Notes under the pieces: model-generated
What the model was told of the DNA's origin: nothing
The model's database searches: none
The model's input: the letters and a program-made list of their open reading frames with translations, nothing else
Translations under genes and position numbers: made by a program
Shown here: one piece after another, positions 3,670-60,276 of the stretch
How the letters are laid out: each line of letters begins with the position of its first letter
Numbering within the stretch: position 1 is the stretch's first letter
IMG/VR virus record: IMGVR_UViG_3300009709_000005
Span: 1-60,276 of that record
Reading direction: 5' to 3' (one strand)
Length of the DNA stretch: 60,276 nucleotides
Source of the DNA: a virus

Positions 3670-3948
3670 CTATTTAATTTCTTCGATCAGCGCACGTAGC
3701 GCTGCGGGCTCTTCTGGTTGCGTGAGGCCTTGATGTTTGCCGAAAGGGAGTTTGCCTGCCTCGACCAGCTCCTCCATCGCCTCGACTACGGTGGTGAGCC
3801 GCGCCTCGACGATGGGCAGGAGCTTGGGGTCTTCGGCTTTCTGGATCCGGTAGATGGTCGTGAAATGCACACCAACCACCTCCGCGATACTGCGGGGGGA
3901 TACCCCCGCAGTACGGATCACCCGAGACAGGCGATCGCTTAGGCTCAC
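3670..3948 (-). CDS. small helix-turn-helix DNA-binding protein
   Basis: SPRSIAEVVGVHFTTIYRIQKAE is HTH-like. GTG start overlaps the upstream stop (GTGA). Confidence 0.5.
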   Translation of the reverse strand: MSLSDRLSRVIRTAGVSPRSIAEVVGVHFTTIYRIQKAEDPKLLPIVEARLTTVVEAMEELVEAGKLPFGKHQGLTQPEEPAALRALIEEIK

Positions 3949-7538: not shown

Positions 7539-7729
7539 GACTCCAGCTCCACCCACACCTGCTTGCCGTTGAACTCGCCCTTGTACTTGATGATGCCCTG
7601 CTCCACGAGCCGCGCCGCAGCCTGCCGTTTGGGCAGGCACAGCACGCAGCCTTTCTTGCCGATGTACTGGCCGTGAAGCGCGATCTCGCGCAGCACCGAC
7701 TCCTCAAAAAGATCCTTGACCAGCTGCAT
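7535..7729 (-). CDS. hypothetical protein
   Basis: ATG at 7729 overlaps the upstream stop (ATGA). Confidence 0.45.
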   Translation of the reverse strand: MQLVKDLFEESVLREIALHGQYIGKKGCVLCLPKRQAAARLVEQGIIKYKGEFNGKQVWVELES

Positions 7730-7992
7730 CACGCCACCTCTTTCACGTTGGCCAGCTCGGCCTTGAAAATGTTGGGGTAGACCGCGATGCTCTCCGGCGT
7801 CTCGTTGGTCAGCACCACGGTGGTCTGCAGTTGATACTTCTTGCCGGCCTTCGTCAACTGCCACAGCAGGCCGTACGAGCCGTCACCGTTTAGCCGTCTG
7901 GACGGCCCGGTCACGACGTAGCCTTGGGCCTCGGCCACCACGATCGCTTCGGTCACCAGCTGTTGAAATTTCGCGGAGTCGGCGGCGTTCAT
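7729..7992 (-). CDS. hypothetical protein
   Basis: 87-aa ORF; ATGA coupling at 7989-7992. Confidence 0.5.
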   Translation of the reverse strand: MNAADSAKFQQLVTEAIVVAEAQGYVVTGPSRRLNGDGSYGLLWQLTKAGKKYQLQTTVVLTNETPESIAVYPNIFKAELANVKEVA

Positions 7993-8336
7993 TTCTGCGA
8001 CTCCAATTTTAGGCCTAGCTTACGGGCTTGTGTTTTTAAGCGTTCAATTTGGTGTTTACGATCTCGCTCAGCTTGATCTTCGGCGCGTTTTCTACGTAAG
8101 CCAATGAGCGATTTTTGAGTGATGCCCAACAACTTGCATGCAGCTGCCCGCACTTCCTTGTTGGTGCCGTTGTATGGGCTCAGCAGGTCGAAATCGCGGT
8201 TGCCTACGTTGTACACCGCGCCGTCTTTGGTTTTGGCCAACGTGATTTGTCTGTTCACCCGAACAATTAAAGCGTCCGCATAATTGGTGTAAAGCGCCAA
8301 AGGCGGAAGGCGGTAGTTTTCGTTGTAGGCGTGCAT
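7989..8336 (-). CDS. hypothetical low-GC protein with C-terminal HTH-like / basic coiled segment
   Basis: 115-aa ORF directly downstream of the intein-bearing gene. Visibly AT-richer than its neighbours. KEVRAAACKLLGITQKSLIG resembles small HTH modules. Confidence 0.45.
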   Translation of the reverse strand: MHAYNENYRLPPLALYTNYADALIVRVNRQITLAKTKDGAVYNVGNRDFDLLSPYNGTNKEVRAAACKLLGITQKSLIGLRRKRAEDQAERDRKHQIERLKTQARKLGLKLESQK

Positions 8337-8338
8337 AA

Positions 8339-10036
8339 TTATTTCCGTTTTCCATTGTGAGGGCACGACAGGACAGGGCACCACGCTTTGCACAAGCCAG
8401 ACGGGTTGGCGGGCCACGTGTCGTGCTGCAGGCTCCATTCCATCTGGTCGACGATGTTGATGAAAGGCTCCCACATCTCCTCGAACGACGTGGTGATGTA
8501 CTTGCCGCGGTCGTCCTGCGTGTCGATGCGGTCGCCGTCGCGACGGATGTACAGCTTGCGCGTGAGGCGCTTGCGCGGGTCGGTCTCCGGCAGCCAGACG
8601 AACACCGTGCGCATTTTCTCCAGCTCGGCATAAGTGTGGAAGCACAGCAGCGTGGAGAGCGCCAGCTGGGCGGAGTTGGGTTTGGTCTTGCCGGTGTTGT
8701 GGGTCGGGATGAAATGCTCGGTGCACAGAAACGTCTCGTCGATTGAATCGACCTTGATGCACTGCGTCGGCACCGAATCGATCTTGGCCACCGACACCAC
8801 GCTGCGCCTCCACGAGCGATTCTTTTTTGGTGCGAACGATCTAAAGATGTCGCGCTTACGCCCAGCGAGAAACGGCTCGATGTCGATTGGGGTGAAACTG
8901 GTTCGGTATACCGTGGATGTCACACCATAACCAGTTTTACTAAACGACGCCCAGTTAGGGCGCTGCCCTAGCGAGTGCAGAAGCTCGTGCACACCACGCA
9001 CGACGATTTCACGCGTTGAATCGAGTACCACCGTACCTCGTGCGGTGTTAGCCGTGCCGTCACCGTCCATGATGCCCTGCAATAGCTCTAATCGCTGTTG
9101 ACGTGAAGCCCGAAGGTAGCGCATAGGAATATGCTTGTTACCCATCACGCCGAGGTTGGTGAGCGCGCTGCGTATGCCTAGCACACTATGTGTCCGACAG
9201 CTGCCGCGTGCCGAGGCGGAATCGTGCCCCAGCTCAAAACCACGCCGCTGAATTTCATCCCACACGCATTGATCTGGTTTGGTAATTTCCAAGCTAGTGT
9301 GCTTGCCATCGGCCAGCCAGATACCCAGCACGTATGGATCCAACGGAAGATCCTGTTTGGGTAAGCGTAGCGCTTTGGTCACCGGGATTAAATGGCGTGG
9401 GCGCAGCTCTGTCACAGGCAGCACAGATCCATCAGCCAGCGTCCACAAATGCTCAGCGTCGCAGCAAACTTTTGTTTTGTCGTCGAATGTGATCTCGTAG
9501 CAGTCAAGGTGTTTGACTTCGGATTTACCGACTACCCGGCATACGGCGCCGAGGCGAGTGAACAGCCGGTCGCCAACTCGTACCTCACCCATCGTGGTCC
9601 AGCCCTTTGGCGTCGGCAACGCGGTGTCGAGCGGCAAACCTTTCCAGTCGCCGTTGATCGCCTGCTTGTTGTCGCCGGACATGCACACCACGTCGATCTT
9701 GCCCCGCATGAAACCGTTGGCGTCCCAGAACCCCGCCGGCTCGAACGCTCTCGTCACAGCCACCGAAAGCTCCGCATGCAGCACCGTGTCCGGCTTGCGC
9801 TGCTCGAACAGATCCAGACCCCACTGGTAGATCGACATATTGCTCGGCAGCGGCCGACCATATTTCACTGCGTTTTCCAGCGCCTTGTGCACGGCGTTGC
9901 CCCACGCCATCTCCGGCGACTCGGCCTGCTGGACGTCCTTGGCCACGCGCAGGTGATAGAACTGCTTGGGGCACGTCTCGTAGGCCGACATGGAGCTGTG
10001 CGACGCAGGGGTCACGGAAAAAGGCTTGGCCATCAA
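8339..10036 (-). CDS. Cas4/RecB-like PD-(D/E)XK exonuclease interrupted by an intein
   Basis: The exteins carry YETCPKQFY, GKIDVV, DWK|TGK and the C-terminal cluster CKAWCPVLSC. Extein total is 250 aa. First ATG is at 10033 (TTG at 10036). Confidence 0.8.
   Translation of the reverse strand: MMAKPFSVTPASHSSMSAYETCPKQFYHLRVAKDVQQAESPEMAWGNAVHKALENAVKYGRPLPSNMSIYQWGLDLFEQRKPDTVLHAELSVAVTRAFEPAGFWDANGFMRGKIDVVCMSGDNKQAINGDWKGLPLDTALPTPKGWTTMGEVRVGDRLFTRLGAVCRVVGKSEVKHLDCYEITFDDKTKVCCDAEHLWTLADGSVLPVTELRPRHLIPVTKALRLPKQDLPLDPYVLGIWLADGKHTSLEITKPDQCVWDEIQRRGFELGHDSASARGSCRTHSVLGIRSALTNLGVMGNKHIPMRYLRASRQQRLELLQGIMDGDGTANTARGTVVLDSTREIVVRGVHELLHSLGQRPNWASFSKTGYGVTSTVYRTSFTPIDIEPFLAGRKRDIFRSFAPKKNRSWRRSVVSVAKIDSVPTQCIKVDSIDETFLCTEHFIPTHNTGKTKPNSAQLALSTLLCFHTYAELEKMRTVFVWLPETDPRKRLTRKLYIRRDGDRIDTQDDRGKYITTSFEEMWEPFINIVDQMEWSLQHDTWPANPSGLCKAWCPVLSCPHNGKRK
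8696..9640 (-). mobile_element. 315-aa intein with LAGLIDADG homing-endonuclease domain (class-3-like WCT signature)
   Basis: aa 133-447 of the ORF: GLPLDTALPTPKGWTTMGEV (block A), DAEHLW (block B), LGIWLADGK and LLQGIMDGDGT (LAGLIDADG x2), VPTQCIKVD..FIPTHN then Thr+1. Lower GC than the exteins. Confidence 0.85.
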
Positions 10037-18204: not shown

Positions 18205-18220
18205 TATCTGGATTCAGATA
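18205..18220. promoter_or_regulatory. palindrome copy 1 (TATCTGGATTCAGATA, 1 mismatch)
   Basis: 31 nt 5' of the ATG at 18173. Confidence 0.7.
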
Positions 18221-18256
18221 AAGCGTTTGTTACTTGGTGCTGTTGGAACAGTTACT

Positions 18257-18285
18257 ATGATCCTCTTTTAGTCAGTCTTTGTCAA
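18257..18285 (-). promoter_or_regulatory. sigma70-like promoter TTGACA-17-GATCAT
   Basis: The -35 element overlaps the stop of gene 18282..18545 and shares TTGACAAAGAC with the 24.0-kb promoter. Confidence 0.4.
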
Positions 18286-18545
18286 GTCAATTTACCTAGC
18301 CCGTTGCACTGTGCACAGGTCTCGATGCGGTCGCCGTCATCGCTGGCATATTCACCTTGGCCGCCGCAGTCGGGGCATGCTTTGAACAGCTTTTTGGCTT
18401 TGGCCCGCCGCGCCTTGGCGCTGTTGGCTTTCACCAGCGCGTGGAGCTTGTCGAAGTCTCCATCAGCTATGATGTACATACCTTCGTGCAGCGGGAACCG
18501 TTTCATGTCCTTGATCAACGCATCAAGATCGGTTTTCAGGCTCAT
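18282..18545 (-). CDS. DnaJ-type zinc-finger (CxxCxGxG x2) protein
   Basis: CPDCGGQG..CAQCNGLG; ATGA coupling at 18542-18545. Confidence 0.5.
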   Translation of the reverse strand: MSLKTDLDALIKDMKRFPLHEGMYIIADGDFDKLHALVKANSAKARRAKAKKLFKACPDCGGQGEYASDDGDRIETCAQCNGLGKLT

Positions 18546-18733
18546 TCCTCTTCTCCGCCGTTGTCGCCGATCGATTCGATCCAATCTTGTAAGTATTCTT
18601 TCTCTGCGGTGTATCGGGCTACGATGTCTTTGCACTGCCGCTTGGTAAACTCTTCTGGGTTGGATTCCATCCGGGTTTGGGCACGCACGGCTGCCTCGAA
18701 TGACTCGATAGCCGGAAAATATTCACTCTTCAT
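18542..18733 (-). CDS. hypothetical acidic protein
   Basis: 63 aa; ATGA coupling. Confidence 0.4.
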   Translation of the reverse strand: MKSEYFPAIESFEAAVRAQTRMESNPEEFTKRQCKDIVARYTAEKEYLQDWIESIGDNGGEEE

Positions 18734-18948
18734 ACCGCCTCCAGTTGTTCGATGGTGCACCACCAGTGCCGACCCTTGGGGCCGTGACCTTGGCGGAACG
18801 TGGAGAACTGCACGTACGCCGCCCCGCTTTTCAGATCCACCAATCGCACCGTGCCCTCGCTCCCTTTGCTTGGACCGGTCTGCGTTTCCCACGGCGTTCG
18901 GACGGCCAAACGCACGCGCTGCCCTTCGGTGATCTCGGACTCTTTCAT
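18730..18948 (-). CDS. hypothetical protein
   Basis: 72 aa; ATGA coupling. Confidence 0.4.
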   Translation of the reverse strand: MKESEITEGQRVRLAVRTPWETQTGPSKGSEGTVRLVDLKSGAAYVQFSTFRQGHGPKGRHWWCTIEQLEAV

Positions 18949-19190
18949 TTGTCGACCCACCCGATCAGCACCAGCATGCCGATACGCTGCTTGAACACAT
19001 GCTCTGCTTTCAGCTCGCGAGCGATGAGCTGGTAGAGCTGCTGCCGCGTCAGCACCACGTCGTACGCCTGATCTATGGCGATCAGAATCTGATCGTAGCT
19101 CAGTGGTTTTTTAGACGCCTGCAGCACCGCGCGCAGCATGTTCGTCGGCGTGGGCTTCACGTGCCTGAGCTGGTCCTTGAGTCTGGTCAT
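18945..19190 (-). CDS. hypothetical protein
   Basis: 81 aa; ATGA coupling. Confidence 0.4.
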   Translation of the reverse strand: MTRLKDQLRHVKPTPTNMLRAVLQASKKPLSYDQILIAIDQAYDVVLTRQQLYQLIARELKAEHVFKQRIGMLVLIGWVDK

Positions 19191-19432
19191 CGCAACACGC
19201 TCCAACCAACGATACCGTTTGCGTCGACGTCGTTTTTATCCGTCGGCATAACGACGCGTACGCCCATCACCTCGACCCAGGTTGTCCACTCGCCGTAGCT
19301 TTCGTACGCGACAATCCTTGTGCTCGGCGCGGCCCCATCAATACGCATCGATTCAATCTCCCGCATGACCGCCACCGTTTCGTTGCGGTCGGCGAGCACC
19401 AGCAGCTTGAGTGCCTGTTCTGCTTTGTTCAT
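19187..19432 (-). CDS. hypothetical protein
   Basis: 81 aa; TGATG junction with the upstream gene. Confidence 0.4.
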   Translation of the reverse strand: MNKAEQALKLLVLADRNETVAVMREIESMRIDGAAPSTRIVAYESYGEWTTWVEVMGVRVVMPTDKNDVDANGIVGWSVLR

Positions 19433-20319
19433 CACTCGAATCCTTCTGCGGCTTTGCGTATGCGGGTTTGGATGTCGTCGATTTCATCGCGCTTGGTTGC
19501 CCACGCGTCGTCGTCGATTACACTATTGACTTCGTCCTCGACCAGCCGCTCCAAATACGATGGCGGCAAGGCGTCCAGCTCCCACGACGAGCTGCCGTAG
19601 ATGCGCTGGTAAGAATCGAACCGCGAGTCTGTCACCTTGGCTGGGTTCTCAGGCGGTCGCAGCTCGTCGATCTGCTCCATGTTCAACGCCATGCGCTTGA
19701 AGTCAAAGTTACCCATCTCGCCTTCGAGGAACAGGTTGAATCGATCTTTCAGATCGCGCGACATGTCGATACCGCTGGGGTCGTGATCGCCGAAGTGCAG
19801 CACCAAAATGTTCTGTCCTCGATAGAGCGTGTCGAGCATGTCGTTTACTACAAACTCGCGCACCACCGACACGGAAGGGTAGCCGCGCGCGGCCAGCACC
19901 GGCACATCGTAACGACGGCACACACGCTCGAACACCGACACCAGCGCTTCCTTTTCGACGATGACAAACGGCCTTGTGCTTTGGTTATCCCAAAGGTCCA
20001 TATGGAACTGCGAAGCGATGCTTTCCAACGCATGTGCACCGCCACGCCAGCGCGAACGGCGTAAAAACTCTCGCGTACGATCTTCGATCGCGTCCCAGTC
20101 CATCAGGCCGGCGAGCCGCGCATCGTTGAATACGCCAGCCACGCGCTTGTACTCCTGCAACGTGTTGGCGATGACGTCGCGCGCGACCAGCTGATAATAA
20201 AGCTGGCGAACAGTGAGCACATAGCCTTCGTTCTGATACTCCTCGATAATGTCGTTGGCTGTCTCGATCAGCGCCAGCGCCGCCGGTTTGAAATTACGAT
20301 CGACGTAGGTCTGTTTCAT
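19432..20319 (-). CDS. Topo VI subunit A / Spo11-like protein (5Y-CAP + Toprim)
   Basis: LTVRQLYYQL (Tyr motif), FVIVEKEAL (Toprim Glu), LAARGYPS, LHFGDHDPSGIDM (DxD). ATG at 20319 overlaps the upstream stop. Confidence 0.55.
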   Translation of the reverse strand: MKQTYVDRNFKPAALALIETANDIIEEYQNEGYVLTVRQLYYQLVARDVIANTLQEYKRVAGVFNDARLAGLMDWDAIEDRTREFLRRSRWRGGAHALESIASQFHMDLWDNQSTRPFVIVEKEALVSVFERVCRRYDVPVLAARGYPSVSVVREFVVNDMLDTLYRGQNILVLHFGDHDPSGIDMSRDLKDRFNLFLEGEMGNFDFKRMALNMEQIDELRPPENPAKVTDSRFDSYQRIYGSSSWELDALPPSYLERLVEDEVNSVIDDDAWATKRDEIDDIQTRIRKAAEGFE

Positions 20320-20627
20320 TCGCCCAGCTCCCCTTGCTCCCACGCATCGCGCAGCGCATCGACTCGCGTGGCAAAGGCTTTGCCGACGGCGTCCTTGTTG
20401 GCCCACATCCAGCCGCCGTTCGCGCGGCCGATGATAAGCGACCGCTCCTTGGCGCGGCGCTCCAGCTGATTGACCGACGGCCGGTCGTCCTGCCATGCCG
20501 CGGCGCCGATGCGCAGGTTCACGCCGTTGCGTTTGTTGTGTGCGTTGAAGGACTGCAGCGCGCCGGTGTTGGCGAACTGCTGAGTGGTGCGACGGCCGCG
20601 GCCGTCCAGTACGATGGCGTGGATCAT
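20316..20627 (-). CDS. hypothetical protein
   Basis: GGAGAG RBS; first gene after palindrome copy 2. Confidence 0.5.
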   Translation of the reverse strand: MIHAIVLDGRGRRTTQQFANTGALQSFNAHNKRNGVNLRIGAAAWQDDRPSVNQLERRAKERSLIIGRANGGWMWANKDAVGKAFATRVDALRDAWEQGELGE

Positions 20628-20640
20628 GATGCTCTCCGGT

Positions 20641-20656
20641 TATCTGAATTCAGATA
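20641..20656. promoter_or_regulatory. palindrome copy 2 (TATCTGAATTCAGATA)
   Basis: Perfect 16-mer, 13 nt 5' of the ATG at 20627. It contains the stop codon of gene 20650..20964. Confidence 0.75.
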
Positions 20657-20964
20657 TTGTTGGGTTCGATGAAAATGGCGCGTACCGTTGTCCAACCGTT
20701 GCGATGCACAGGCCCGCTGCACACAGACGCGGTAGTGACATCGCGCTGCTCGCCGTTGACTAATGCTTCCAGTACGTCGGGCGGAATGGCGATGAACAGC
20801 TCGACCTTGCGCGGCTCGATCTTGTAATCGAGATACTGAAAATCGAAGCGGTATTCCGTGTTGTGCACAAGTGGTGTCCAGTCCGTGTGGTTGGGGTGTC
20901 GCACCATGATCTGCTTTCCCGCCATGTGCGCGGTGATAATGTCGATCTGCTGCTGTCGGTTCAT
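20650..20964 (-). CDS. hypothetical protein
   Basis: 104-aa ORF; ATGA coupling at 20961-20964. Confidence 0.5.
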   Translation of the reverse strand: MNRQQQIDIITAHMAGKQIMVRHPNHTDWTPLVHNTEYRFDFQYLDYKIEPRKVELFIAIPPDVLEALVNGEQRDVTTASVCSGPVHRNGWTTVRAIFIEPNNI

Positions 20965-21143
20965 GGCGTCGTCCTTTCGATCAGCACGTAATCCGGGCCG
21001 CTGAACACGTCACGCTGCACACTGGCCCCGCACGCTTTGCCGATGCAATCGCACCCTTCAGCCTGCACGATCATGTGCTGCGGCAACTGGCGAAGCTGTT
21101 CGATCAGCTCAGCAACCGTGATGGTTTTCTTTGGGTCAATCAT
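20961..21143 (-). CDS. hypothetical protein
   Basis: 60 aa; ATGA coupling. Confidence 0.4.
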   Translation of the reverse strand: MIDPKKTITVAELIEQLRQLPQHMIVQAEGCDCIGKACGASVQRDVFSGPDYVLIERTTP

Positions 21144-21448
21144 GCGTCGTCCTCAAGGTCAGTGATGATGGTTTCGATGCGCTCGACCAGCGTCTTGAAC
21201 AGGTCGTCGCTCAGCTCCTCCTGCAGCTCGCGCAGTGCCGTGCACGCCTGCTCGATCTTTTGCTCCAACGGCGCGGCAATCTCTTCGATCTGCTCCTCGC
21301 ATTCCTCCTCGGTGTACATTTCACCGATCAGGCCGTCACGCTTGGCCAGCACAGCGGCGAGTGGGTGGTTGTGCAGGCCGTTGGTACCGAGTAGCAGCGC
21401 ACGCTCGGCTCGGGCGATCTCGAAATGGGTGGGGATGGGGCGGCTCAT
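21140..21448 (-). CDS. hypothetical strongly acidic protein
   Basis: The C-terminal 60 aa are about one third Asp/Glu (EEECEEQIEEI..EDDA). Confidence 0.45.
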   Translation of the reverse strand: MSRPIPTHFEIARAERALLLGTNGLHNHPLAAVLAKRDGLIGEMYTEEECEEQIEEIAAPLEQKIEQACTALRELQEELSDDLFKTLVERIETIITDLEDDA

Positions 21449-21699
21449 GGTTGCACCGCCACGTAGGTTTCGCCGCCCCAGCGCTGAAGCTTGGCCATCT
21501 CCACAGTCTCGGTCGCGCTGCTGTTCCTGTAGCGCGTCTGCACGCTGAGTGCGTTGGCGTTGGCCAGCAGCTCACCCATCGCTTGGGCCTCGAGCTGAAT
21601 CTGCTCGCCGCCTGCTTCCCACCAGCAGTGGAAATCGCGCTGCGTGGCTACGTTGACCAACACGTTGATGTGTTTGTTGCTGCACTGAAAGGCGCTCAT
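21445..21699 (-). CDS. hypothetical protein
   Basis: 84 aa; first gene after palindrome copy 3. Confidence 0.5.
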   Translation of the reverse strand: MSAFQCSNKHINVLVNVATQRDFHCWWEAGGEQIQLEAQAMGELLANANALSVQTRYRNSSATETVEMAKLQRWGGETYVAVQP

Positions 21700-21714
21700 G
21701 GTTCTTTCCGGTGT

Positions 21715-21730
21715 TATCTGAATTCAGATA
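21715..21730. promoter_or_regulatory. palindrome copy 3 (TATCTGAATTCAGATA)
   Basis: Perfect 16-mer, 15 nt 5' of the ATG at 21699 and about 45-55 nt downstream of the 21.8-kb promoter. Confidence 0.75.
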
Positions 21731-21781
21731 AAGTGTTTAGACGTCTGGATGGCTACGTGGTGATCCCCTCACCACGACACT

Positions 21782-21810
21782 ACTATACCAATGTTATACG
21801 TGTTCGTCAA
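21782..21810 (-). promoter_or_regulatory. sigma70-like early promoter TTGACG-17-TATAGT
   Basis: Minus strand reads TTGACGAACACGTATAACATTGGTATAGT, near-identical to the block at 24022..24050. Confidence 0.65.
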
Positions 21811-22114
21811 TGACTGTGCCCGGTTCGTAGGCGGCTGGTTCGGCGCTGCGGTTCGGCTCCGCGTCAGGGCGAATGTGGATGCCCTTGTTCTCCAGCAGCG
21901 TGACTACGCGAGTGCGCCGACGCTCCACCACACCTTTCACTTCAGCCCCATCAAGCTTTATGCCGCCGATGTCAGCTATGTATTTGTTATCAACGTTGAT
22001 GTGGCTCAGCGCTGCCAAGTCATCGTCATTTTTGCGCAGCTCCACCAGCAGCTCCGCTACCTCCTTCACTGCTGCCGATCCCCGCAGCGTAGCCCCACCG
22101 CCGACGGCGCTCAC
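21794..22114 (-). CDS. hypothetical protein
   Basis: GTG at 22114 overlaps the upstream stop (GTGA). The last codons are embedded in the promoter block. Confidence 0.4.
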   Translation of the reverse strand: MSAVGGGATLRGSAAVKEVAELLVELRKNDDDLAALSHINVDNKYIADIGGIKLDGAEVKGVVERRRTRVVTLLENKGIHIRPDAEPNRSAEPAAYEPGTVIDEHV

Positions 22115-22299
22115 TGGATCACCTCTTCGTTGAACGTGTGGCTTTCGTAGCCACATTCTTGGCACATTTTGTTGTCGAAGATGCCGTAGATTTGCCAGCT
22201 CTGCGTCTCCACATCCCAGCGCGCCGATGCGTCGGCGGCCACGTCATCGCTGCCACAGCTCGGGCAGACAACCCGCACCAGTTTTGTTTCGTTGCTCAT
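22111..22299 (-). CDS. small zinc-ribbon protein
   Basis: CPSCGS..CQECG; ATGA coupling. Confidence 0.45.
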   Translation of the reverse strand: MSNETKLVRVVCPSCGSDDVAADASARWDVETQSWQIYGIFDNKMCQECGYESHTFNEEVIQ

Positions 22300-22550
22300 G
22301 GCAAAGCCCTCAGCCAGTGAATGATGGTCGGCGCGACGTTCCACACCAACAGCGTAGCCGCCAGCGCCGCCGCGATTTTGATGATAAGCCAGCCTGCCCC
22401 TTCAAACGGCTCCGACGTTTCCTCCTCGCGGTCCTCGGCCGCGTAGTCCAGCTGAATCACCGGCACGCGCCGAAGCCGCTCTGCTTCCGCGGCAGCATGC
22501 TCCAGCTCGTAGGCCGGCGCCTCGGTGTCGCTTAGATAGATGTGCTGCAT
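22296..22550 (-). CDS. small protein with C-terminal transmembrane helix
   Basis: WLIIKIAAALAATLLVW; AGGAA RBS. Confidence 0.5.
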   Translation of the reverse strand: MQHIYLSDTEAPAYELEHAAAEAERLRRVPVIQLDYAAEDREEETSEPFEGAGWLIIKIAAALAATLLVWNVAPTIIHWLRALP

Positions 22551-22552
22551 GG

Positions 22553-22741
22553 TTAGTTCCTCAGTCGTTTGCGGGCGGCGCGGCGCGCCAGTTCTTTCTC
22601 GTGGTCAGCCTCGGCCACTTCCACACAGCACGGCAAGCCGGTCGTGCCGTCGCTTTCGTAGTCCCAGTGCGGACAGTTGTTCAGCGCCTGCCGGTACCGA
22701 CGTTGTGCATGCTCCAGCCGCAGCGGTGCCAGATGATCCAT
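22553..22741 (-). CDS. small arginine-rich protein
   Basis: LEHAQRRYRQALNN and ARRAARKRLRN segments; GGAGA RBS. Confidence 0.45.
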   Translation of the reverse strand: MDHLAPLRLEHAQRRYRQALNNCPHWDYESDGTTGLPCCVEVAEADHEKELARRAARKRLRN

Positions 22742-22742
22742 G

Positions 22743-23000
22743 TCACTCTCCGTTGCCGTTCAAGGCGTCCCAGTGGTGGTTGATGATGTCGATCACATTG
22801 CCGTCGTCGATCGGTTCGTCGCTGATCAAAACACCTGCGGCGCACATAGCGCCGTCGCGGCCTCGGTAAACGCAGGCTTTCGGATTGCCTTGGGCATCTT
22901 CACCCATCGACATGAAGCCCTGCGTCAGCAGATGCACGGCCACGGTATCGAACACGTCCTGCGCGGTGGCTTCGTGCAGGTTGTCAGTGGCCACTTTCAT
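22743..23000 (-). CDS. hypothetical protein
   Basis: 85 aa; ATGA coupling at 22997-23000. Confidence 0.45.
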   Translation of the reverse strand: MKVATDNLHEATAQDVFDTVAVHLLTQGFMSMGEDAQGNPKACVYRGRDGAMCAAGVLISDEPIDDGNVIDIINHHWDALNGNGE

Positions 23001-23422
23001 ACGCGCTCCAGATGCTGCTCGATCAGGTCCGCGATCTCAACGAAAGATTTCCTACTGTTGTCGTTGATGTAGGCCAAGCTGTGGTCGTCGCTGGGTATGT
23101 GTGGTATGTGGCAGTCGAGCGTGAGATTGCGGTCGCCGTTTTCGTCGTGGCGATAGCCAAGGAAACAAACGTTGTGCGCTCTGAGCCATTCTTTTGTAGG
23201 CACATACAGCGCCCTACTCGCATAAGTGAACTCCAGATCGAGCTCCACCGCGCCGTCAGCCACCATCTGCAGCACGCCTAGACAGCAGTAGCGTTTGTCG
23301 CCGTTGAGCTCCTCGGTCATGAGCCGGCATCGGCCCTGCTTGTATCCACCGCTGCGCAAGGCAGCGAGCCAGTTGTCGGCCAGATCGGCTGGCATGGTGA
23401 TGGTTTTGGTGTCGTTGGTCAT
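22997..23422 (-). CDS. hypothetical protein
   Basis: 141 aa; ATGA coupling. Confidence 0.5.
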   Translation of the reverse strand: MTNDTKTITMPADLADNWLAALRSGGYKQGRCRLMTEELNGDKRYCCLGVLQMVADGAVELDLEFTYASRALYVPTKEWLRAHNVCFLGYRHDENGDRNLTLDCHIPHIPSDDHSLAYINDNSRKSFVEIADLIEQHLERV

Positions 23423-23580
23423 GCGCCTTCTCCCGCCATGGCGGCGTTGTAGTACCCGATTTGGTAAGCGCGCTGCGCCCAGTATGGCCAGCGTCCGCCG
23501 TAGCGCGCTTGCCGATCATAAGGCCGGTAGTTGGCGCGGTCCGCATAGCCCCATGCCTCGAAGCGGATGCGTGCTTTCAT
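23419..23580 (-). CDS. hypothetical small protein
   Basis: 53 aa; ATGA coupling at both ends. Confidence 0.35.
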   Translation of the reverse strand: MKARIRFEAWGYADRANYRPYDRQARYGGRWPYWAQRAYQIGYYNAAMAGEGA

Positions 23581-23783
23581 GCTGCTACTCCCGTCAGGTC
23601 GTGCAGCGCCTCGGCGATCGCCTGCACTTCGCAGGTCCAGAACGCTGTGTCGATTTTCTGGATGCACACGAACGCGTTGGCCATCTCGATCGTGTCGTCG
23701 TACCCCTCGCGCTCCAGCCACGCCTCGTAGTCGTCGACCATGTCGGCGGCGATGCTGCGGTAGCTGCGCAGGTCGTGTTTCAT
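23577..23783 (-). CDS. hypothetical protein
   Basis: 68 aa; GGAGAG RBS; first gene after palindrome copy 4. Confidence 0.5.
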   Translation of the reverse strand: MKHDLRSYRSIAADMVDDYEAWLEREGYDDTIEMANAFVCIQKIDTAFWTCEVQAIAEALHDLTGVAA

Positions 23784-23802
23784 CTCGTTCTCTCCGGTGG
23801 TT

Positions 23803-23818
23803 TATCTGAATTCAGATA
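23803..23818. promoter_or_regulatory. palindrome copy 4 (TATCTGAATTCAGATA)
   Basis: Perfect 16-mer, 19 nt 5' of the ATG at 23783. Confidence 0.75.
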
Positions 23819-24021
23819 TTGGTTTGTTGGTCGCCCTGCCGTCCACAGGGTGCGTTGTGTGGCCGGGGCAATCTCGTCCGGCCTGCCGTCTGAATTGTCA
23901 TCTCATTCGGTGTTGCAGCGTCTATCTATATCCTCATGGTTGAAGCGGTTACGTTAGTTCATGGTGCGTCACCTCGCTGGTGTTGGTGGGTGGCGAAGTC
24001 AGTGCCTGCCCCACACTTCAT

Positions 24022-24050
24022 ACTATACGGATGTTATACGTCTTTGTCAA
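24022..24050 (-). promoter_or_regulatory. sigma70 consensus-like early promoter TTGACA-17-TATAGT
   Basis: Minus strand reads TTGACAAAGACGTATAACATCCGTATAGT. Confidence 0.7.
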
Positions 24051-24555
24051 GGACAGGCAGCATCGCTCTGGCGACACTGGGCGTCAGCACATACTTCGGC
24101 GCGCCGACAATGGCCGCGTTGTTTCGTATCTTCATCGCCCGTGCGATCAGGTCGGCGATGTTGGTCCAGTGCGCCCACGGTGTGCTGCGGCTGCTGTAGG
24201 TCATGGTGAGCTTCACGCCGTTGGCGATGTTGTCCACGTGCAGGCCATAGCGCGGGTTCTTCACGCTCTTGTGCGTCGGCGGTCGGTAGCTGGCCATGAT
24301 CAGCTCCTTGTTCCCCAGCGCCTCGCTCGCGGCCCAGCCCAGATGGCGTATCGCTTCCGTGCGCGCGGCGTAGGCGGGCATCCGAATACGGCCCGGCATC
24401 TCGTTGATACCCGGCAAGGTCTGACTGCAAAGGGATGCCAGCGCTTCGAGGGTGCGGCAGGGGGGATTGTTCTTGCCGCGCGTGATCCACTCGCGCTGCG
24501 CCGGCGTGAGATACACCGGGTTTTGAATGGTGTGGTAGACCGGCAGCGCCTTCAT
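24034..24555 (-). CDS. hypothetical protein, paralog of 24552..25022
   Basis: Shares YRPxTHKSxxxPRY..VDxI..GV..T..PW..L..RA.K with the upstream gene. ATGA coupling. Confidence 0.5.
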   Translation of the reverse strand: MKALPVYHTIQNPVYLTPAQREWITRGKNNPPCRTLEALASLCSQTLPGINEMPGRIRMPAYAARTEAIRHLGWAASEALGNKELIMASYRPPTHKSVKNPRYGLHVDNIANGVKLTMTYSSRSTPWAHWTNIADLIARAMKIRNNAAIVGAPKYVLTPSVARAMLPVLDKDV

Positions 24556-25022
24556 TCCACATGCGCCTTGATCGCGCGATCCATCAGCTGCTGCACGCTG
24601 GTGTATATCCACCACGGTTTGCACCGTCCGCCGCGCCTCGGCGTGATCCGCACGCCGCCAGGTATCTCGTCCACCCAAATGGCGTAGCGCGGGCTGCGCG
24701 CGCTCTTGTGTGTCGCTGGCCGGTACGTGGCGCGGATCACTTCCTCCGGCGTGAGGCGGAACTCGGCGCCTTTGGTGAGCGCCTTGATGGCGTCGCGTCT
24801 GGCTCGCTCGGCGTCCATCGCGTCCAGCACGTTGGTAAAGGCGTCGCGGCGGCTTTGCACGTCCACAAGGTGGGCCAGCGCTTCAATGGGGTGGCGGTCG
24901 AACGTCCACGGGTAATTCACCGGGTCGATCCAGTCCACGACGGTGTCGCTTATGGGCTGCGGCTCGAAGCGGGTATGGTTGAAGGCCAAGTAGTTCTTGG
25001 TGGGCTTGCGGGGCATCGGCAT
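24552..25022 (-). CDS. hypothetical protein, paralog of 24034..24555
   Basis: 156-aa ORF; first gene after palindrome copy 5. Confidence 0.5.
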   Translation of the reverse strand: MPMPRKPTKNYLAFNHTRFEPQPISDTVVDWIDPVNYPWTFDRHPIEALAHLVDVQSRRDAFTNVLDAMDAERARRDAIKALTKGAEFRLTPEEVIRATYRPATHKSARSPRYAIWVDEIPGGVRITPRRGGRCKPWWIYTSVQQLMDRAIKAHVE

Positions 25023-25040
25023 GCGGGTTTTCCGGTGGGT

Positions 25041-25056
25041 TATCTGAATTCAGATA
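25041..25056. promoter_or_regulatory. palindrome copy 5 (TATCTGAATTCAGATA)
   Basis: Perfect 16-mer, 18 nt 5' of the ATG at 25022. Confidence 0.75.
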
Positions 25057-25696
25057 ATGGGCTTGTTGCGTCGTGTAGCGTTGGCGGTTTGGAGTGTAGC
25101 GTTGTTAAATGTTGCTTAACGTATCGCGAGGTGTGGCGTATCGCGCACATGCTACACACGGGGTTTTTGGGGCTTTTTCGGGTCGGCGGCTGTTTTACGA
25201 AGGAAGTCGCGGCGGCTGAAACTGAACAAAGTGGTTAGACGTATCAGGCGTATCTTGTTTTACGAAGGTGTAGCGCGTTTTTGGGTTCTAAAACGGGGTC
25301 GATTTTGGGTGACTATAACAGACATGTATCAACGATACAACGTTGTGCGGCGCGGGCTGCGGGGCGGATTTTTGGAGGGGCGGCAGATGTTACATGGCTC
25401 TAGGCAGACAAGAAAGTTCGGGGCTTCGTAAAACACACAGACTTTCTAAAACGGCTGTTTTACGAAGGCCGCCTTCGGATGGTGTGATTTGGCGAGCGAT
25501 ACATCGAATACACCTAAATACAAATGTTTATAAGAATAAGCATATATATGGCATAAAACCACCTCGAACCGCTGTTTCACCCCGTTTTTGCAATCGTTTT
25601 GGTGACGCTACTAGACGCATCAGTTAAATTTGCGTTATGAAACTCGGTGCTTATAGTCCGCAAGTTTGATGATAAGTTTTTGATGATAAGCCGGAC
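25057..25696. repeat. repeat-dense, partly AT-rich non-coding region (iteron-like; candidate origin/regulatory hub)
   Basis: GTTTTACGAAGG x3 direct plus 1 inverted copy; GTGTAGCG(TTG) x3; CGTATCGCG x2; TCTAAAACGG x2; TTTGATGATAAG x2 at 14-nt period; AT-rich block at about 25505-25560; no credible ORF. Confidence 0.55.
25312..25340 (-). promoter_or_regulatory. sigma70-like promoter TTGTAT-17-TATAGT
   Basis: Minus strand reads TTGTATCGTTGATACATGTCTGTTATAGT. It would give a leader of about 250 nt to palindrome copy 5. Confidence 0.35.
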
Positions 25697-25721
25697 ACAA
25701 AAAACCCGCCTTTCGGCGGGC
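25697..25721 (-). terminator. rho-independent terminator
   Basis: Minus strand reads CCCGCC-GAAA-GGCGGG followed by TTTTTTGTGT, 30 nt after the stop at 25750. Confidence 0.75.
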
Positions 25722-25749
25722 CATTTCGATCGTTGTTAGGCCTAGCAGG

Positions 25750-26412
25750 TCATGCGGCCTTGGCCAATTCGGCCTGCACGGCGACCATCTCGCGCCATGT
25801 GGCGATCATTTCCAGCGCTTCGCGGGCCTGCGCCTTGTGCTTGGCCGCCCACTTGCTGAAAGCGTCCACCACGTCTTGCGCGGACGCGTTAGCGGCGATC
25901 TTCACCGGCGACTGAGCCGCGACTAGCGCGCCGTCGCCGCCGTCACTTTTATCTGAATCAGATAAATCCGCCTTGCCGCTGGTCACTTTGCCTGCCGGCC
26001 CTTTGCGCGTCGATTCAAGGCCCGCATTGCCTGCCGCGTATTGCCACGCGTTGGCAATGTCTTTGTTTTCCTGAAGGTTTTTGAAGCCCAACACCTGTGC
26101 GAGCATCTTGCCCGCGTCAATCCGGGCCACACCGTGCGATGCGGCATACTCGGCCAGCAGCTTGATGATGCTACGCAGCCCTTCGCGGGCCGTGCTGGTG
26201 CGGTCGGCGCAGCGCAGAATGTCTGCCTTATGCTCGGCGACCAGCGACGCGAAGCCCTGCGCGGCCTCACTGACCAGCGGCTCGGCGGCAATGTTAGCGG
26301 TCAGCTTGTCCATGATCGCCTGCGCGGCTTTCGTGGCGTCGCCCTTGGCGGGCTTGGCGCCGCGCGGCTTGCTGGCGGCGGGCACGATGGTGGTAATGGT
26401 CTTGGCATTCAT
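25750..26412 (-). CDS. hypothetical Ala-rich early protein (220 aa)
   Basis: GGAGAG RBS before the ATG at 26412 (the longer track ORF lacks an RBS). Monocistronic unit closed by a terminator. Confidence 0.55.
   Translation of the reverse strand: MNAKTITTIVPAASKPRGAKPAKGDATKAAQAIMDKLTANIAAEPLVSEAAQGFASLVAEHKADILRCADRTSTAREGLRSIIKLLAEYAASHGVARIDAGKMLAQVLGFKNLQENKDIANAWQYAAGNAGLESTRKGPAGKVTSGKADLSDSDKSDGGDGALVAAQSPVKIAANASAQDVVDAFSKWAAKHKAQAREALEMIATWREMVAVQAELAKAA
25950..25964. promoter_or_regulatory. degenerate palindrome copy (TATCTGAA-TCAGATA, central base missing) inside a CDS
   Basis: 15-mer within gene 25750..26412, encoding part of ..DLSDSDKS.. Confidence 0.5.
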
Positions 26413-26516
26413 CTCGATTCTCTCCGGTTCTAAGGTTCGCCGCGGCGGCATTGCCTCGACGTGGTGCAAGTATGTCAGTTTTCGGCTTGTCAGTCTACCC
26501 CTTGTCGGCACTTGTT

Positions 26517-26532
26517 TATCTGAATTCAGATA
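26517..26532. promoter_or_regulatory. palindrome copy 6 (TATCTGAATTCAGATA)
   Basis: Perfect 16-mer, 104 nt 5' of the ATG at 26412, in the divergent control region. Confidence 0.75.
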
Positions 26533-51692: not shown

Positions 51693-51993
51693 TTCTGACC
51701 ACGGCAATTCACTGGTCGCCGAACTGCTGGGCTACGAGCAGGCCTACGAAGAGGCCAAGGACAAGGTCACCGCGGCTGACCCATTCATCAAATACTTCGA
51801 CGACAACAAGGAAATCACGCTGTCCGATGACGACGCGCATGACGCGCACTCGCTCTACATCGTGGCGCCGAACGACCCCATGGAGAGTTTCAGCTTGATC
51901 CCGCGCGTCGCGAAAAAGAACAAGCTCGGCAAGCTGTCGAAAGACGCGCTGCGCCGGATTCTGGGCAACCTCCTTGACTCGGTGAAAGTATGA
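51664..51993 (+). CDS. hypothetical acidic protein
   Basis: 109 aa; ATGA coupling to the giant gene. Confidence 0.35.
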   Translation: MRTLSTTQVDSDHGNSLVAELLGYEQAYEEAKDKVTAADPFIKYFDDNKEITLSDDDAHDAHSLYIVAPNDPMESFSLIPRVAKKNKLGKLSKDALRRILGNLLDSVKV

Positions 51994-54900
51994 GTGTCGT
52001 CGACCCCACCGCGATTCCGCCGCCCGTTCGCTACGCTGATCAGGGCAACGACGCGTACAGCCAGTACGTCAAGACAGGCCAGCTCCCCGCTGCTAATGCA
52101 GGTGGATCCATGGGTGTGCCGCCTGTCGTGGCTCCCGTGCAAGCGCCCGCTCCCGCGCCAGCACCGTCCGGCGGCGAGTTCGACGCGCTGGTCAAAGCCC
52201 ACGAAGCCACCAACGGTGGCAAGCCGCTCAGCGAGCAGCAGCTCGACAGCCTACGCGATTCGTACTGGGCGACGCAGGAGCCGGGCGTGTGGGCGAGCCA
52301 TAAGGGCATCACCAAAGGCGCTGTGCTGGCCGAGAAAGGTGCGTTCAACGCCGGGTACAACGACTACAAGGCCAAGTACCTCAAGACGCACGCGGACCCA
52401 GCGACGGTGGCCAAGGGCGGCGCGGGTGAAGCGCTGACCGATTTCGGTAAGGCGGCCGGCGGCACGTTGGCCAAAAGCGGTATCGAGCTGGGCCGTGACG
52501 TGGCTGGTGGTGTCGTTGGTCTCGGTGAGGGTATTGGCAATGCGTTCCAGCATTACGTGCTGGGCAACAAGGACTACGACGCGGCTACCGATCCGTCAAA
52601 CAGCGGCCTCAATACCGACCGTTTATTCAGTGGTATTGACAACGGTCTGGGTGCGCGCGCCGGTGAAGACGCGGTCGGCAAAATGGTGGCAGATGCCACA
52701 CAGCGCAGCCCCATCGCGGGTACGGCCGGCCAGATTGCGGGTGTAGTCGCTCCTGCGTTTATCCCCGGTGGTCAGGAAGTAGCCGGCGACGAGGCGGCTG
52801 GGTTTATCGCGTCGCACCTGCCCGGTGCCGTCAAGGCCGCTATTGGCCCAACGCTCAGCCAACAAGGCGACGCGCGCGACAAGGGCGCCAGTGTGGCCCA
52901 GCAGTATGGCGTAGCTGGTGTTGGTGCGCTGACTAACACGGCGATGGGTCTGGTACCGGGCGCGAAATCCGTGCTGGGCCGCGCCGCGGTCAACGCTCTC
53001 GTGGGCGGCGGTGTTGGGGCTGCGGGGCAGGAAGCGCAGCATCTCATCGCCCCCAATCAGGTCGACGCCCCGACGCTTCCCGATACGGGCAAGCAGGCGG
53101 GTGTGGCTGCTGTGCTCGGTGAGCTGGCCCACCGCGGTGGGAATATCCTCGCGCGAAAGAAACCGGCAGAAACCGTGGCACCCGCGGCAAACCCCGTCGA
53201 TGCAGCAGGCAACCCGGTCACGAACGCCGATGGCTCCCCGGTGCAAATCGCACCGGGCGTGGAGCTACCAGTCAACCCCAATGCCGCGCCCGTACCCCCC
53301 GACGCTATTCCGCCCGGCCCCGGCGTGCCGGACGATGTGCATGCTGTCGTGGTTAAGCGTGCCGAGAGCGAAGGCAATCTGGCCAAGCCCAAGAAGGGTG
53401 AGGTGCTGACGGCGCCGGAAGTAGTGGCGCGCGCCAAGATCCTCGCCAGCGAAGACGACACCGGCACCGTGCAGCCCCAATGGGTGCAGATGACTGCCGA
53501 GCAGCGCCAGACCGCGATTGAAGCGGCGGCGTCAGCCCTGAACAAGCACGCTAAGGTAGACGGCCTGCCTGAAGCACTGGCGGCTGATCGTGCCACAGCC
53601 CTTGCGCCTGCCCCGGCAGTGGCCGCGGAAGCTGACGCCGTGCCCGAGGGTGCCACCGTACCGACAGAGACCGGAGAAGTGCCGCAGGCGAATTCAGCCG
53701 CCGATCTGGCCAACTTCGGCAAGATGGGTAAAGGCATCGCCGACAGTTTCTACGACGGATTTTTCAACCGCTTGCAGGGCAAGGCCGGATCCACGTCGAC
53801 GTTTGATTCCGAGCCCCAGTTCGCCGCGGCTAAGGCGGCGATGGCGCGCGGTGAGATTTCCACACCTGAAGATCTAAAAGCGTTTCTCAACAAACCGGCG
53901 GCGCAAATCCCCGGCATGGAGGATGGCTCCGAAACCCCGCCTGCCGCGCAGGTAGGCAATGACGTGGCCGCGGCTGCACTGGCCGGTGAAGGTGCCAACG
54001 CCAGCCCGATTGACAACACCCCCAAGACGTCGGACGCGCGCACCGCGGCGCAGGCCCAGCAGAGTGGCACGATCGACGAAGTGCAGCAGCACGCCGACCT
54101 CGACGCCCAGCTCAAGGCGATGAAGAAAGGCCTGAAGCCGAAATTCACCAAGGCCACCATCGACAAGATGACGTTGGCCGACAAGCAGAAAGTGATTGCC
54201 GACGCACAGCCGAAACCCAAAGCCAATCCGCTGGCCAAGAAAGGCGCGCCCAGCGATGACGTGTTGGCGGCAACGCAGAAGGCCGATGCTCCGGGCATCA
54301 ACAAGATCAATGACAACGGGCAGCCGCGCCAGCCGGGCGAGCCGTTGTCCAGCAAGACGCCGATCGTGTCGACGAAAGATGTGCACCTCGCCGGTGGCGT
54401 GAGTCAGGACGGCAATACGATCTACATCGATCAGCGCATGCCGAAGTTCGTCGTGGTCGGCGGCAAGCGGATCAACGTGCACGAAGCCGTAGCGCTGCAC
54501 GAGCGCGTCGAATGGCCGCTGATGAAAGAGATGGGCGCAAAGTACCACGATGCACACGACGCCGCGACGGCCGCGGAGAACCATTTCATCCGTCAAAAGT
54601 ATGGCGTGGACCCCGAGCTCTACCAGAAGAAGCTGCAGGCAGCGATCAAGAAAGCCGGCATCGAGAACCGCCACCCCAGCGCCGACATCCCCGCCGATCT
54701 GGACACTCAGCCGAACGTTGACTTGGGCGATACCAAGCCGCTGGAGGGCAAGGTCAATCCGATTAGCAAACGGGGCTCCCCACCAAAAAAAGCGGAGGCT
54801 CCGGCGGACGCGCAACCGGCGGAGCCAGTAGCCTCAAGCGAAAGCCAGCCAAGCCTAAGTGACGCGGAAAAGCTGCTCGCCCAGCATCTGACGCCCAGCG

Positions 54901-60075: not shown

Positions 60076-60276
60076 GGGATTTTCCTTTAATGGAGGCGTC
60101 GATGGCAGTGTCTAGCTCTTCATTCCAAAGGCAGTAACTGTCGCTGTCGTTGAAACCGATGGTTATGTTTCGTTTGCCCGGACTACGGTTTACAAGATCA
60201 CGCAACCACCGATACCTCTCCGCATCCCGCTGATCCCCCGCCAAGGCTGACTCGATGACTTTGGCGGCGGCGCGGG
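60068..60276 (-). CDS. 3' part of the wrap-around Lar-like ORF (60154..60276 duplicates 1..123)
   Basis: The same reading frame as 1..331 continues ..ITIGFNDSDSYCLWNEELDTAIDASIKGKSHE then TAA at 60068-60070. Confidence 0.6.
   Translation of the reverse strand, partial: RAAAKVIESALAGDQRDAERYRWLRDLVNRSPGKRNITIGFNDSDSYCLWNEELDTAIDASIKGKSHE
60154..60276. repeat. terminal redundancy / circular-closure overlap, copy 2 (identical to 1..123)
   Basis: Exact 123-bp duplicate of the window start. Confidence 0.95.

Follow-up and report, generated by a model that had tools for sequence, protein, structure and literature searches.

The genome held in IMG/VR virus record IMGVR_UViG_3300009709_000005 (60,276 nt, analysed over this whole length and called the window from here on) contains, in the region of its leftward early genes, seven copies of a 16-bp palindrome, TATCTGAATTCAGATA, of which five are perfect, one has a single mismatch and one lacks a base. 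What is a short symmetric sequence doing so many times in one region, mostly just before the Shine-Dalgarno (SD) sequences of early gene modules? Is it read as double-stranded DNA or as a hairpin in the transcript, and which protein would read it? The answer proposed here, to which we give a probability of about one half, is that the palindromes are double-stranded DNA operators for a dimeric protein encoded by the phage itself, probably the product of its first early gene (g1 hereafter), which would work as a stoperator-like silencer and also regulate its own gene. The existence of the motif family, its conservation, its placement and the symmetry of its variation are directly supported by the sequences compared.

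Copies of the palindrome and their placement

Searching the window with up to two mismatches returned six 16-mers, against 0 matches in 100 dinucleotide-preserving shuffles; the seventh copy, shortened by one base (TATCTGATTCAGATA, 25950-25964), extends to TTATCTGATTCAGATAA (25949-25965). The positions given in the original prediction, which had been made from the letters alone, were confirmed in this way, and its distances from the palindromes to the start codons are correct (Table 1). Its claim that no copy occurs elsewhere in the 60 kb was borne out by a scan allowing up to four mismatches and variant spacers, the family being sharply bounded.

Table 1. Positions in the window of the palindrome copies, of g1 and of the early promoters and terminator.
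Feature	Position	Strand	Remarks
Palindrome, perfect	26517..26532		104 nt 5' of the g1 start codon; 19 nt upstream of the -35 box of the proximal g1 promoter
Palindrome, 15 bp, centre one base shorter	25950..25964		Within the g1 coding sequence, in the linker-coding part
Palindrome, perfect, 18 bp with flanks	25041..25056		18 nt before ATG 25022
Palindrome, perfect	23803..23818		19 nt before ATG 23783; downstream end of a 250-nt gap
Palindrome, perfect, 18 bp with flanks	21715..21730		15 nt before ATG 21699
Palindrome, perfect, intergenic, without promoter	20641..20656		13 nt before ATG 20627
Palindrome, one mismatch (central base)	18205..18220		31 nt before ATG 18173, DUF932 gene
g1, first early gene, 220 aa	25750..26412	-	Orphan all-helical family
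Proximal g1 promoter (putative)	26469..26497	-	TAGACT-17-CATACT; weak by consensus, read from sequence
Strong intrinsic terminator directly after g1	25703..25722	-	Kept after g1 in lineages A-F
Weaker sigma70-like promoter	25340-25312		TTGTAT-17-TATAGT; below scan threshold
Sigma70-like early promoter	24022..24050	-	TTGACA-17-TATAGT
Sigma70-like early promoter	21782..21810	-	TTGACG-17-TATAGT
Sigma70-like early promoter	18257..18285	-	TTGACA-17-GATCAT

Three placements are conserved: before the start codons of early modules, upstream of the promoter of g1 and within its coding sequence. From 26.5 kb down to 17.2 kb, every intergenic gap of at least 22 nt in the window holds exactly one palindrome, and the six gaps further downstream, past 17.2 kb, hold none; within modules, the genes in the first 9 kb of this leftward arm overlap by 4 nt. 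The copies beginning at 23803, 21715 and 18205 lie at about +205, +53 and +38 from the promoters at 24050-24022, 21810-21782 and 18285-18257, respectively, and several copies stand at +10 to +55 of scan-detected promoters, while the copy at 25041 stands at the downstream extreme of a non-coding gap of 727 nt. The copy at 20641 is intercistronic, as first described, and the upstream stop codon that it holds is the TGA of gene 20650..20964. Counted over three genomes, about 20 copies that are not associated with g1 end 0-24 nt before a GGAG-type SD sequence and 1-36 nt before a start codon.

A common leader cassette of about 40 nt is found in the window. Both flanks had been described as conserved: the one on the gene side, AAC(C)ACCGGAGA, is indeed present at four copies, although the ACCGGAG within it is a common SD context in this phage that also occurs without a palindrome (e.g., at 26428, 17079 and 752), whereas the upstream CAACAA is seen only in the window and not in the related phages. 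Three of the four sigma70-like promoters initially proposed (24050-24022, 21810-21782 and 18285-18257) were recovered by the promoter scan, the fourth being weaker.

The motif in related phages

The relatives considered are the contigs that hold homologs of g1 and those reached through the DUF932 protein, and they are partial. With the window as lineage A, the motif, whose consensus is W-ATCT-K-(3-5 nt)-M-AGAT-W, is found in five related metagenomic lineages, namely B (L151-153), C (L148-150 and L156-157), D (L154), E (L155) and F (L279), 32 copies in all. The presence of the motif at equivalent positions in relatives, whose absence the original prediction had named as one of the results that would refute it, was observed in these five lineages. 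L151 has 10 copies and L156 has 8, next to the 7 of the window, while L150 and L154 have 3 apiece and L155 and L279 a single one; per genome, the copies number 7-11, lie at module junctions and outside core promoters, and are confined to the early region. The half-sites read TATCT..AGATA in the window and AATCT..AGATT in lineages B-F.

Lineages B and C are relatives of the window across the genome (large terminase subunit 70-74%, DUF932 protein 74-76% and replication proteins 45-80% identical). Almost none of the small early open reading frames (ORFs) are common to A, B and C, and the motif heads modules in all three. At the junction between a 104-aa gene (20650..20964) and a 103-aa gene (20316..20627), where the 20641 copy stands, the motif is also found in L151 (13756-13770), the proteins being only 36-40% identical, and in lineage C it precedes the DUF932 gene too (L156 9962-9976).

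The motif is seen only in lineages that have a member of the g1 family. Relatives whose fetched parts contain no g1 homolog also lack the motif in those parts; they are L022, L023, L144-146, L158 and L280, reached through the DUF932 protein or the ‘topoisomerase’ protein, and Sano, in which there is no repeated palindrome. When the exact motif was scanned for in IMG/VR, in metagenome contigs and in bacterial genomes, the matches listed were all isolated and due to chance. The distant contig L280 (DUF932 protein 66% identical), which lacks the palindrome, has AAAATATAAT-like repeats in short gaps at module boundaries (945, 1732, 3884, 6991 and 10756), which may answer the same architectural need in another way.

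The g1 family as candidate binding protein

Which protein could recognise the palindrome? The only immediate-early gene common to all six motif-bearing lineages is g1, which forms a separate transcription unit with a strong terminator. An exhaustive search found only 8 homologs among 1.84 billion representatives, and none was found in IMG/VR or in bacterial genomes, so no prophage or host link emerges. Between lineages, the g1 proteins are 30-47% identical; they have a conserved helical core, R..AG..LA..LG...K.IANAWQYAA, with N121, W123 and Q124 invariant, followed by a disordered acidic/Ser linker and by C-terminal helices. This architecture of core, long linker and C-terminal helices could, as far as the predicted model goes, tolerate changes of 1-2 bp in the spacing of the half-sites.

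The palindrome is tied to this gene twice. In six lineages, a copy precedes the -35 box of the g1 promoter by 12-25 nt. The proximal promoter in the window is a putative one, read from the sequence, and it aligns with the scan-detected TTGACG-17-CATACT of L151 (6827-6855). In L279, tandem repeats stand before this upstream copy, and the 86 nt available show no evident upstream promoter. The second copy lies inside the coding sequence in lineages A-D, in the same frame and at the same position, where the surrounding amino acids are not conserved and the palindrome uses the two rarest Ser codons of the phage (TCT, 3.6%, and TCA, 4.8%); residues that are not kept and codons that are rare show that this copy is under selection at the nucleotide level. 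Because the gene is shared by the six lineages, has a site upstream of its promoter and, in A-D, a site within its coding sequence, g1 is the best candidate binder.

The original prediction had proposed g1 and the protein encoded at 3670..3948 side by side. The latter has only a sub-threshold HTH_23 match and is conserved in lineage B, and it is a possible binder, g1 being the better of the two. For g2 (24552..25022), no homolog was found beyond itself.

The surroundings of g1 have further features. In its leader, between promoter and SD sequence, lineages A, B and D have a GC-rich stem-loop, GTCGAGGCAATGCCGCCGCGGCG (window 26420-26460). After the g1 terminator comes a long non-coding stretch (window 25023-25749; also L150 ~970-1600, L154 ~1080-2280 and L151 ~7640-8280), which opens with two copies of CTTATCATCAA, a DnaA-box-like sequence kept in lineages A-D, followed by repeats that differ between lineages (CTTCGTAAAACA four times in the window, TGTAGCATTACA in L150); in L279, tandem repeats are found on both sides of g1. 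The stretch looks like a replication origin beside g1.

DNA or RNA: the pattern of variation

Can the variation among copies tell a DNA operator from an RNA hairpin? The original prediction had suggested comparing co-variation, as expected of RNA, with strict conservation, as expected of DNA, in related phages. In an alignment of 31 copies, none of the four core pairs (ATCT/AGAT) changes; at the outer pair, 24 copies have A-U and 7 have U-A, and at position 6 there are 22 copies with G-C, 2 with U-A and 7 in which the two bases do not pair, with 0 one-sided wobble changes in 217 cells. These paired changes alone do not decide between DNA and RNA, because a palindromic DNA operator gives the same ‘covariation’.

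The half-sites and their flanks give additional information. All the variant half-sites at position 6 (11/11) read AATCTT, through G>T in the left arm or C>A in the right one and never through C>U. The first flanking base is G or C in 40/40 cases in lineages B and C and A or T in 14/14 in the window, while the first flanks are complementary across the two sides in only 9/20 (B and C) and 4/7 (window) of the copies; at the second flanking base, 19/20 left sides have Y and 19/20 right sides have R. Moreover, two adjacent half-site positions differ between lineages on both sides together, from S-A to W-T. A dyad operator would be expected to mirror its half-site variants and flank preferences on both sides, which is what is observed, and also to keep a fixed centre-to-centre spacing of its half-sites, which is not.

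The uniform half-site variant, the class-constrained flanks and the promoter-tied g1 copy favour duplex DNA recognised by a symmetric dimer; the variable centre and the start-codon anchoring would rather favour a hairpin in RNA.

Proposed explanation and its alternatives

On the explanation preferred here, host RNA polymerase would initiate at the strong sigma70-type early promoters, and g1 would be produced first, from its own short, terminated transcription unit. The g1 product would then bind its upstream and internal sites, leading to autoregulation, possibly with looping over ~500-590 bp, and, at the single site on the 5' edge of each early module, it would block transcription entering the module or insulate the module from it. 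The outcome would be a ‘stoperator’-like shut-off of the hypervariable early (host-takeover) genes. We infer the action at the DNA level, the identity of g1 as binder, the roadblock and the looping. Since one and the same sequence of 15-16 bp is found at every module boundary, the palindrome is probably also a recombination point for module exchange; if cassettes made of an SD sequence and its genes were exchanged at the repeat, as has been proposed for the promoter early stem-loops (PeSLs) of other phages, the adjacency to the SD sequence would have a historical explanation.

Several observations weigh against this explanation. As the original prediction had already stated, the copies are not at -10 or -35 positions, and none overlaps a core promoter. 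In gaps of 90-727 nt, the copy is always at the downstream end (Fisher p = 1.8e-4; p = 7e-5 for gaps of at least 150 nt), and four of the lineage C copies lie within the 3' end of the preceding gene, an anchoring to start codons that a simple roadblock does not require. The centre has 3, 4 or 5 nt (15-, 16- and 17-bp forms), even within one genome, which is unusual for rigid dimeric operators. As for g1, its predicted all-helical structure is of modest quality (mean predicted local distance difference test score, pLDDT, 63.5), and it gave no match in Pfam, PHROG, PDB by sequence, PDB by fold or BFVD, and no recognisable DNA-binding fold or family. Of the two readings in the original prediction, that of an operator is the better supported. 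The co-occurrence of motif and g1 is confounded by relatedness and rests on partial contigs. Finally, a role in immunity of the stoperator type is not directly applicable, because no lysogeny genes are present among the proteins scanned.

The most serious rival, which we consider possible and clearly less probable than DNA operators, is an RNA hairpin with a stem of 5-6 bp and a loop of 3-7 nt, directly 5' of the SD sequence of the first gene of each module, through which a phage protein, g1 or another, would repress or activate translation or would cleave or stabilise the transcript, as a class-wide early control comparable with T4 RegA/RegB or the MS2 coat-replicase operator. In its favour are the abutment of about 20 non-g1 copies on SD sequences and start codons in three genomes, significant in the long gaps, the copies squeezed into upstream coding sequences in lineage C, and a stem that is kept while the loop varies in length and sequence (AAUU, AAUC, AUU, AAU, AGU, ACU, GAUU, AGAU, GUUU and AGGCU, among others). 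Each copy folds as an isolated hairpin with its flanks and the SD sequence free (-4.6 to -6.8 kcal/mol for the canonical forms), and the outer (U-A vs A-U) and position-6 (G-C vs U-A) pairs change on both sides. However, G-U wobbles are missing, in seven copies the position-6 pair is lost, each time through the dyad-symmetric substitution, the flanks are of the same base class on both sides without pairing, and the hairpins of the variant copies have little stability (-2.3 to -2.6 kcal/mol). In addition, the g1-upstream copy precedes the proximal promoter, so that it would be absent from that transcript and far from the g1 SD sequence, and neither a larger conserved RNA structure (fold z-scores are unremarkable) nor an Rfam match was found. 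A more elaborate form of RNA action, still more tentative, would make the transcribed hairpin an ‘address label’ before the ribosome-binding site of each early module, by which orphan g1 would silence or cut a temporal class of mRNAs, its own included, the label doubling as a gene-exchange junction; by analogy, and with the same reserve, this would be a hairpin-guided functional counterpart of T4 RegA/RegB with a new protein fold.

The remaining explanations are considerably less probable. That the palindromes are only boundary sequences, short homologies through which early cassettes are shuffled without any dedicated binding protein, seems unlikely, even though lineages A, B and C have almost no homology in their early regions and yet their modules open with motif and SD sequence, the motif positions shift relative to shared genes between lineages, the window has its common leader cassette of ~40 nt and PeSLs provide a published precedent (PMC2839356, PMC4122927). 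Such shuffling leaves unexplained the copies upstream of and inside g1, a core invariant at four pairs and nearly so at the rest when g1 itself is only 30-47% identical, and the dyad-symmetric flank constraints; besides, 15-16 bp is very short for homologous exchange. An operator for a host transcription factor, borrowed to couple early expression to host physiology, is rather improbable: a conserved host binder would be a natural reason for a motif core kept across lineages whose early genes, even g1, have strongly diverged, but the exact 16-mer gave scattered single matches in unrelated, mostly low-GC bacterial taxa, with no enriched genus or multi-copy genome among the 120 matches listed, two half-site positions have changed symmetrically in the window lineage with respect to the others, and, to our knowledge, the palindrome matches no host operator consensus. 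Least probable of all is the second reading of the original prediction, a nut-type site in which a boxB-like hairpin and an upstream boxA would load an N-like, arginine-rich antiterminator. The hairpin is small and boxB-like, five window copies lie downstream of sigma70-like promoters, and the strong terminator after g1 is followed by weaker terminator-like hairpins further downstream. Nevertheless, the CAACAA taken as boxA gives way in the relatives to unrelated, G/C-ending flanks, the loops (3-7 nt) have no conserved GNRA-like or purine-rich sequence, and no homolog of the arginine-rich protein suggested as antiterminator (22553..22741) was found in lineages B and C (tblastn against L151 and L156), where the motif is present. 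There are 7-11 sites per genome instead of one per operon, some of them intercistronic without a promoter and one intragenic, the g1-upstream copy precedes its promoter and no Rfam family matches. Action as RNA fares poorly in its nut form, whereas a hairpin beside the SD sequence is a serious competitor.

Some other candidates were rejected. A phage-specific promoter (N4-type hairpin or T7-type) was discarded given that no RNA polymerase is present among the proteins scanned; an N4-type start, ~11 nt from the hairpin centre, would fall within the SD sequence, a palindromic hairpin promoter would fire bidirectionally, and the 2393-aa virion protein has only an LPD38 domain and no PDB match. 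A sigma70 promoter within the palindrome lacks a suitably spaced -35 or -10 box, an intrinsic terminator would need the U-tract that does not follow the stem, and the stem is too short for an RNase III site.

Genome setting and other features

The window is a complete, circularly closed phage genome assembly with 60% G+C and a terminal repeat of 123 nt (1-123 identical to 60154-60276). Megablast found no close phage relative in GenBank, and the replication module is only 50-57% related to those of Chi-, Sano- and NP1-like phages. The rightward genes, which start at 26861, encode both terminase subunits, small and large, and an SU10-type portal among other products; the leftward ones run from 26412 to near the window start, small ORFs of unknown function being followed by the replication module (PolA, SNF2 helicase, PD-(D/E)XK nuclease and DUF927 primase-helicase). 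No RNA polymerase, integrase, repressor or lysogeny genes were detected among the proteins scanned, and the phage looks like a lytic podophage.

Regarding the early region, the promoters at 24022-24050 and 21782-21810 are near-identical including their spacer (TTGACrAaCACGTATAACAT..TATAGT), which could reflect either a duplicated promoter cassette or a second regulatory site in the spacer. The gene after 24552..25022 is a frame of 173 aa from the ATG at 24555 (window 24034-24555), as called on an identical Logan contig, and the 171-aa ORF at 24047..24562, whose translation looks out of frame, is not that gene. The 295-aa protein encoded at 19432-20319 is labelled ‘DNA topoisomerase’ through PHROG 6247, a label that looks unverified as it has no Pfam domain; it is 50-72% identical to proteins of Chi-, Sano- and NP1/PaMx25-like siphophages and of Burkholderia genomes.

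Elsewhere, the nuclease gene at 8339-10036 (PD-(D/E)XK/Exo5-like) has a LAGLIDADG domain in its middle, and the homologs in relatives are only 235-250 aa long, which suggests an intein or an inserted homing endonuclease. The virion module ends with the protein of 2393 aa mentioned above (51990-59171), in which LPD38 (‘polyvalent protein’) is the sole domain and which has no PDB sequence match; its relatives, of 2312-2896 aa, have InPase and LPD23 domains, and it is probably an injected multi-domain protein. GANTC is depleted in the window (119 observed vs ~215 expected) and GATC enriched (438 vs ~215), and in lineages B and C the centre of the motif, and often both of its ends, are GANTC (GAATC, GAGTC, GACTC or GATTC), a pattern that hints at a possible link to CcrM-type methylation or to an alphaproteobacterial-type host. 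A link of the palindrome to GAATTC avoidance or restriction was also considered and dropped, the count of 12 sites against 8.4 expected being uninformative.

Significance and comparison with known systems

One 15-16 bp site and one orphan protein family would make up a small regulatory code, open to testing, for the early, host-takeover genes, the part of a phage genome that varies most and is understood least, in a clade that is known only from metagenomes. If the sites are roadblock operators, stoperator-like silencing would extend from temperate actinophages to apparently lytic podophages of proteobacterial type, and with a symmetric site; if they act as RNA, they would be a new class-wide signal for translation or processing. 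In either case, the motif marks early-module boundaries and could be used for early-gene annotation, for the prediction of exchange points and as a portable control element.

How does it compare with what has been described? Some arrangements recur in well-known systems. On RK2/IncP plasmids, KorA and KorB operators are identical short palindromes at many operons of one replicon, some of them outside core promoters, and in the gal operon OE and OI form an upstream and intragenic operator pair around a regulator-linked promoter, which the pair of g1 sites resembles. Unlike here, where no such domain is detectable in the phage candidates, the Kor and gal systems have known HTH (helix-turn-helix) or ParB-type proteins and fixed spacing. 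The lambda nutL and nutR sites are also small hairpin-forming sequences in the leader downstream of early promoters, but the features that define them (boxA, the loop and the arginine-rich protein) are not conserved here, and the palindromes are many, including intragenic and pre-promoter ones. PeSL cassettes of T4-type phages flank hypervariable early ORFs and are thought to mediate modular shuffling (PMC2839356, PMC4122927). What the palindrome has in common with them is that it is a conserved repeat beside ORFs particular to each lineage, within a hyperplastic early region; however, a PeSL consists of an early promoter and a terminator stem-loop, whereas here a bare palindrome stands beside the SD sequence, without a U-tract and with promoters 36-260 nt upstream.

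The closest described systems are the Cluster A stoperators and the Cluster K start-associated sequences (SAS) with their extended forms (ESAS). Stoperators of L5 and Bxb1, recognised by a gp71-type repressor, are asymmetric, orientation-dependent sites of 13-14 bp for a monomeric immunity repressor, found in both arms of temperate phages. In Cluster A mycobacteriophages they are dispersed short sites at which a bound phage protein stops elongating RNA polymerase (PMC9283540). The palindrome is like them in its many copies of a short site, mostly in short intergenic spaces outside core promoters; unlike them, it is dyad-symmetric instead of asymmetric and one-oriented, has a variable centre and occurs solely in the early region of what seems to be a lytic podophage, with no repressor or integrase among the proteins scanned.

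In Cluster K, the repeats lie at the translation starts of non-structural genes: SAS is an asymmetric 13-bp sequence, GGGATAGGAGCCC, which contains the SD sequence, and ESAS are inverted repeats upstream of it, with imperfect arms of 17 bp, spacers of 4-13 bp and a consensus that differs between subclusters (PMC3203893). Their authors favoured DNA-binding sites over RNA hairpins, because the departures from symmetry do not support pairing (PMC3203893), and their function was still unverified in 2025 (PMC12699233). Like ESAS, the palindrome is an inverted repeat whose spacer varies and which directly precedes the translation initiation region of non-structural genes, and the combination of DNA-type symmetry with start-codon anchoring reproduces the same tension and sharpens that question. 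Nonetheless, its arms are of 6 bp and near-invariant around a centre of 3-5 nt, its sequence is unrelated, there is no separate SAS beyond the common ACCGGAG context, it has additional conserved copies at and inside g1, and the carriers of SAS and ESAS are temperate siphoviruses of actinobacteria, unlike this apparently lytic podophage clade. Short, near-invariant symmetric arms, confinement to the early region, copies at and inside an orphan gene and an unrelated sequence are what sets the palindrome apart from both stoperators and SAS/ESAS, the systems that it otherwise resembles most.

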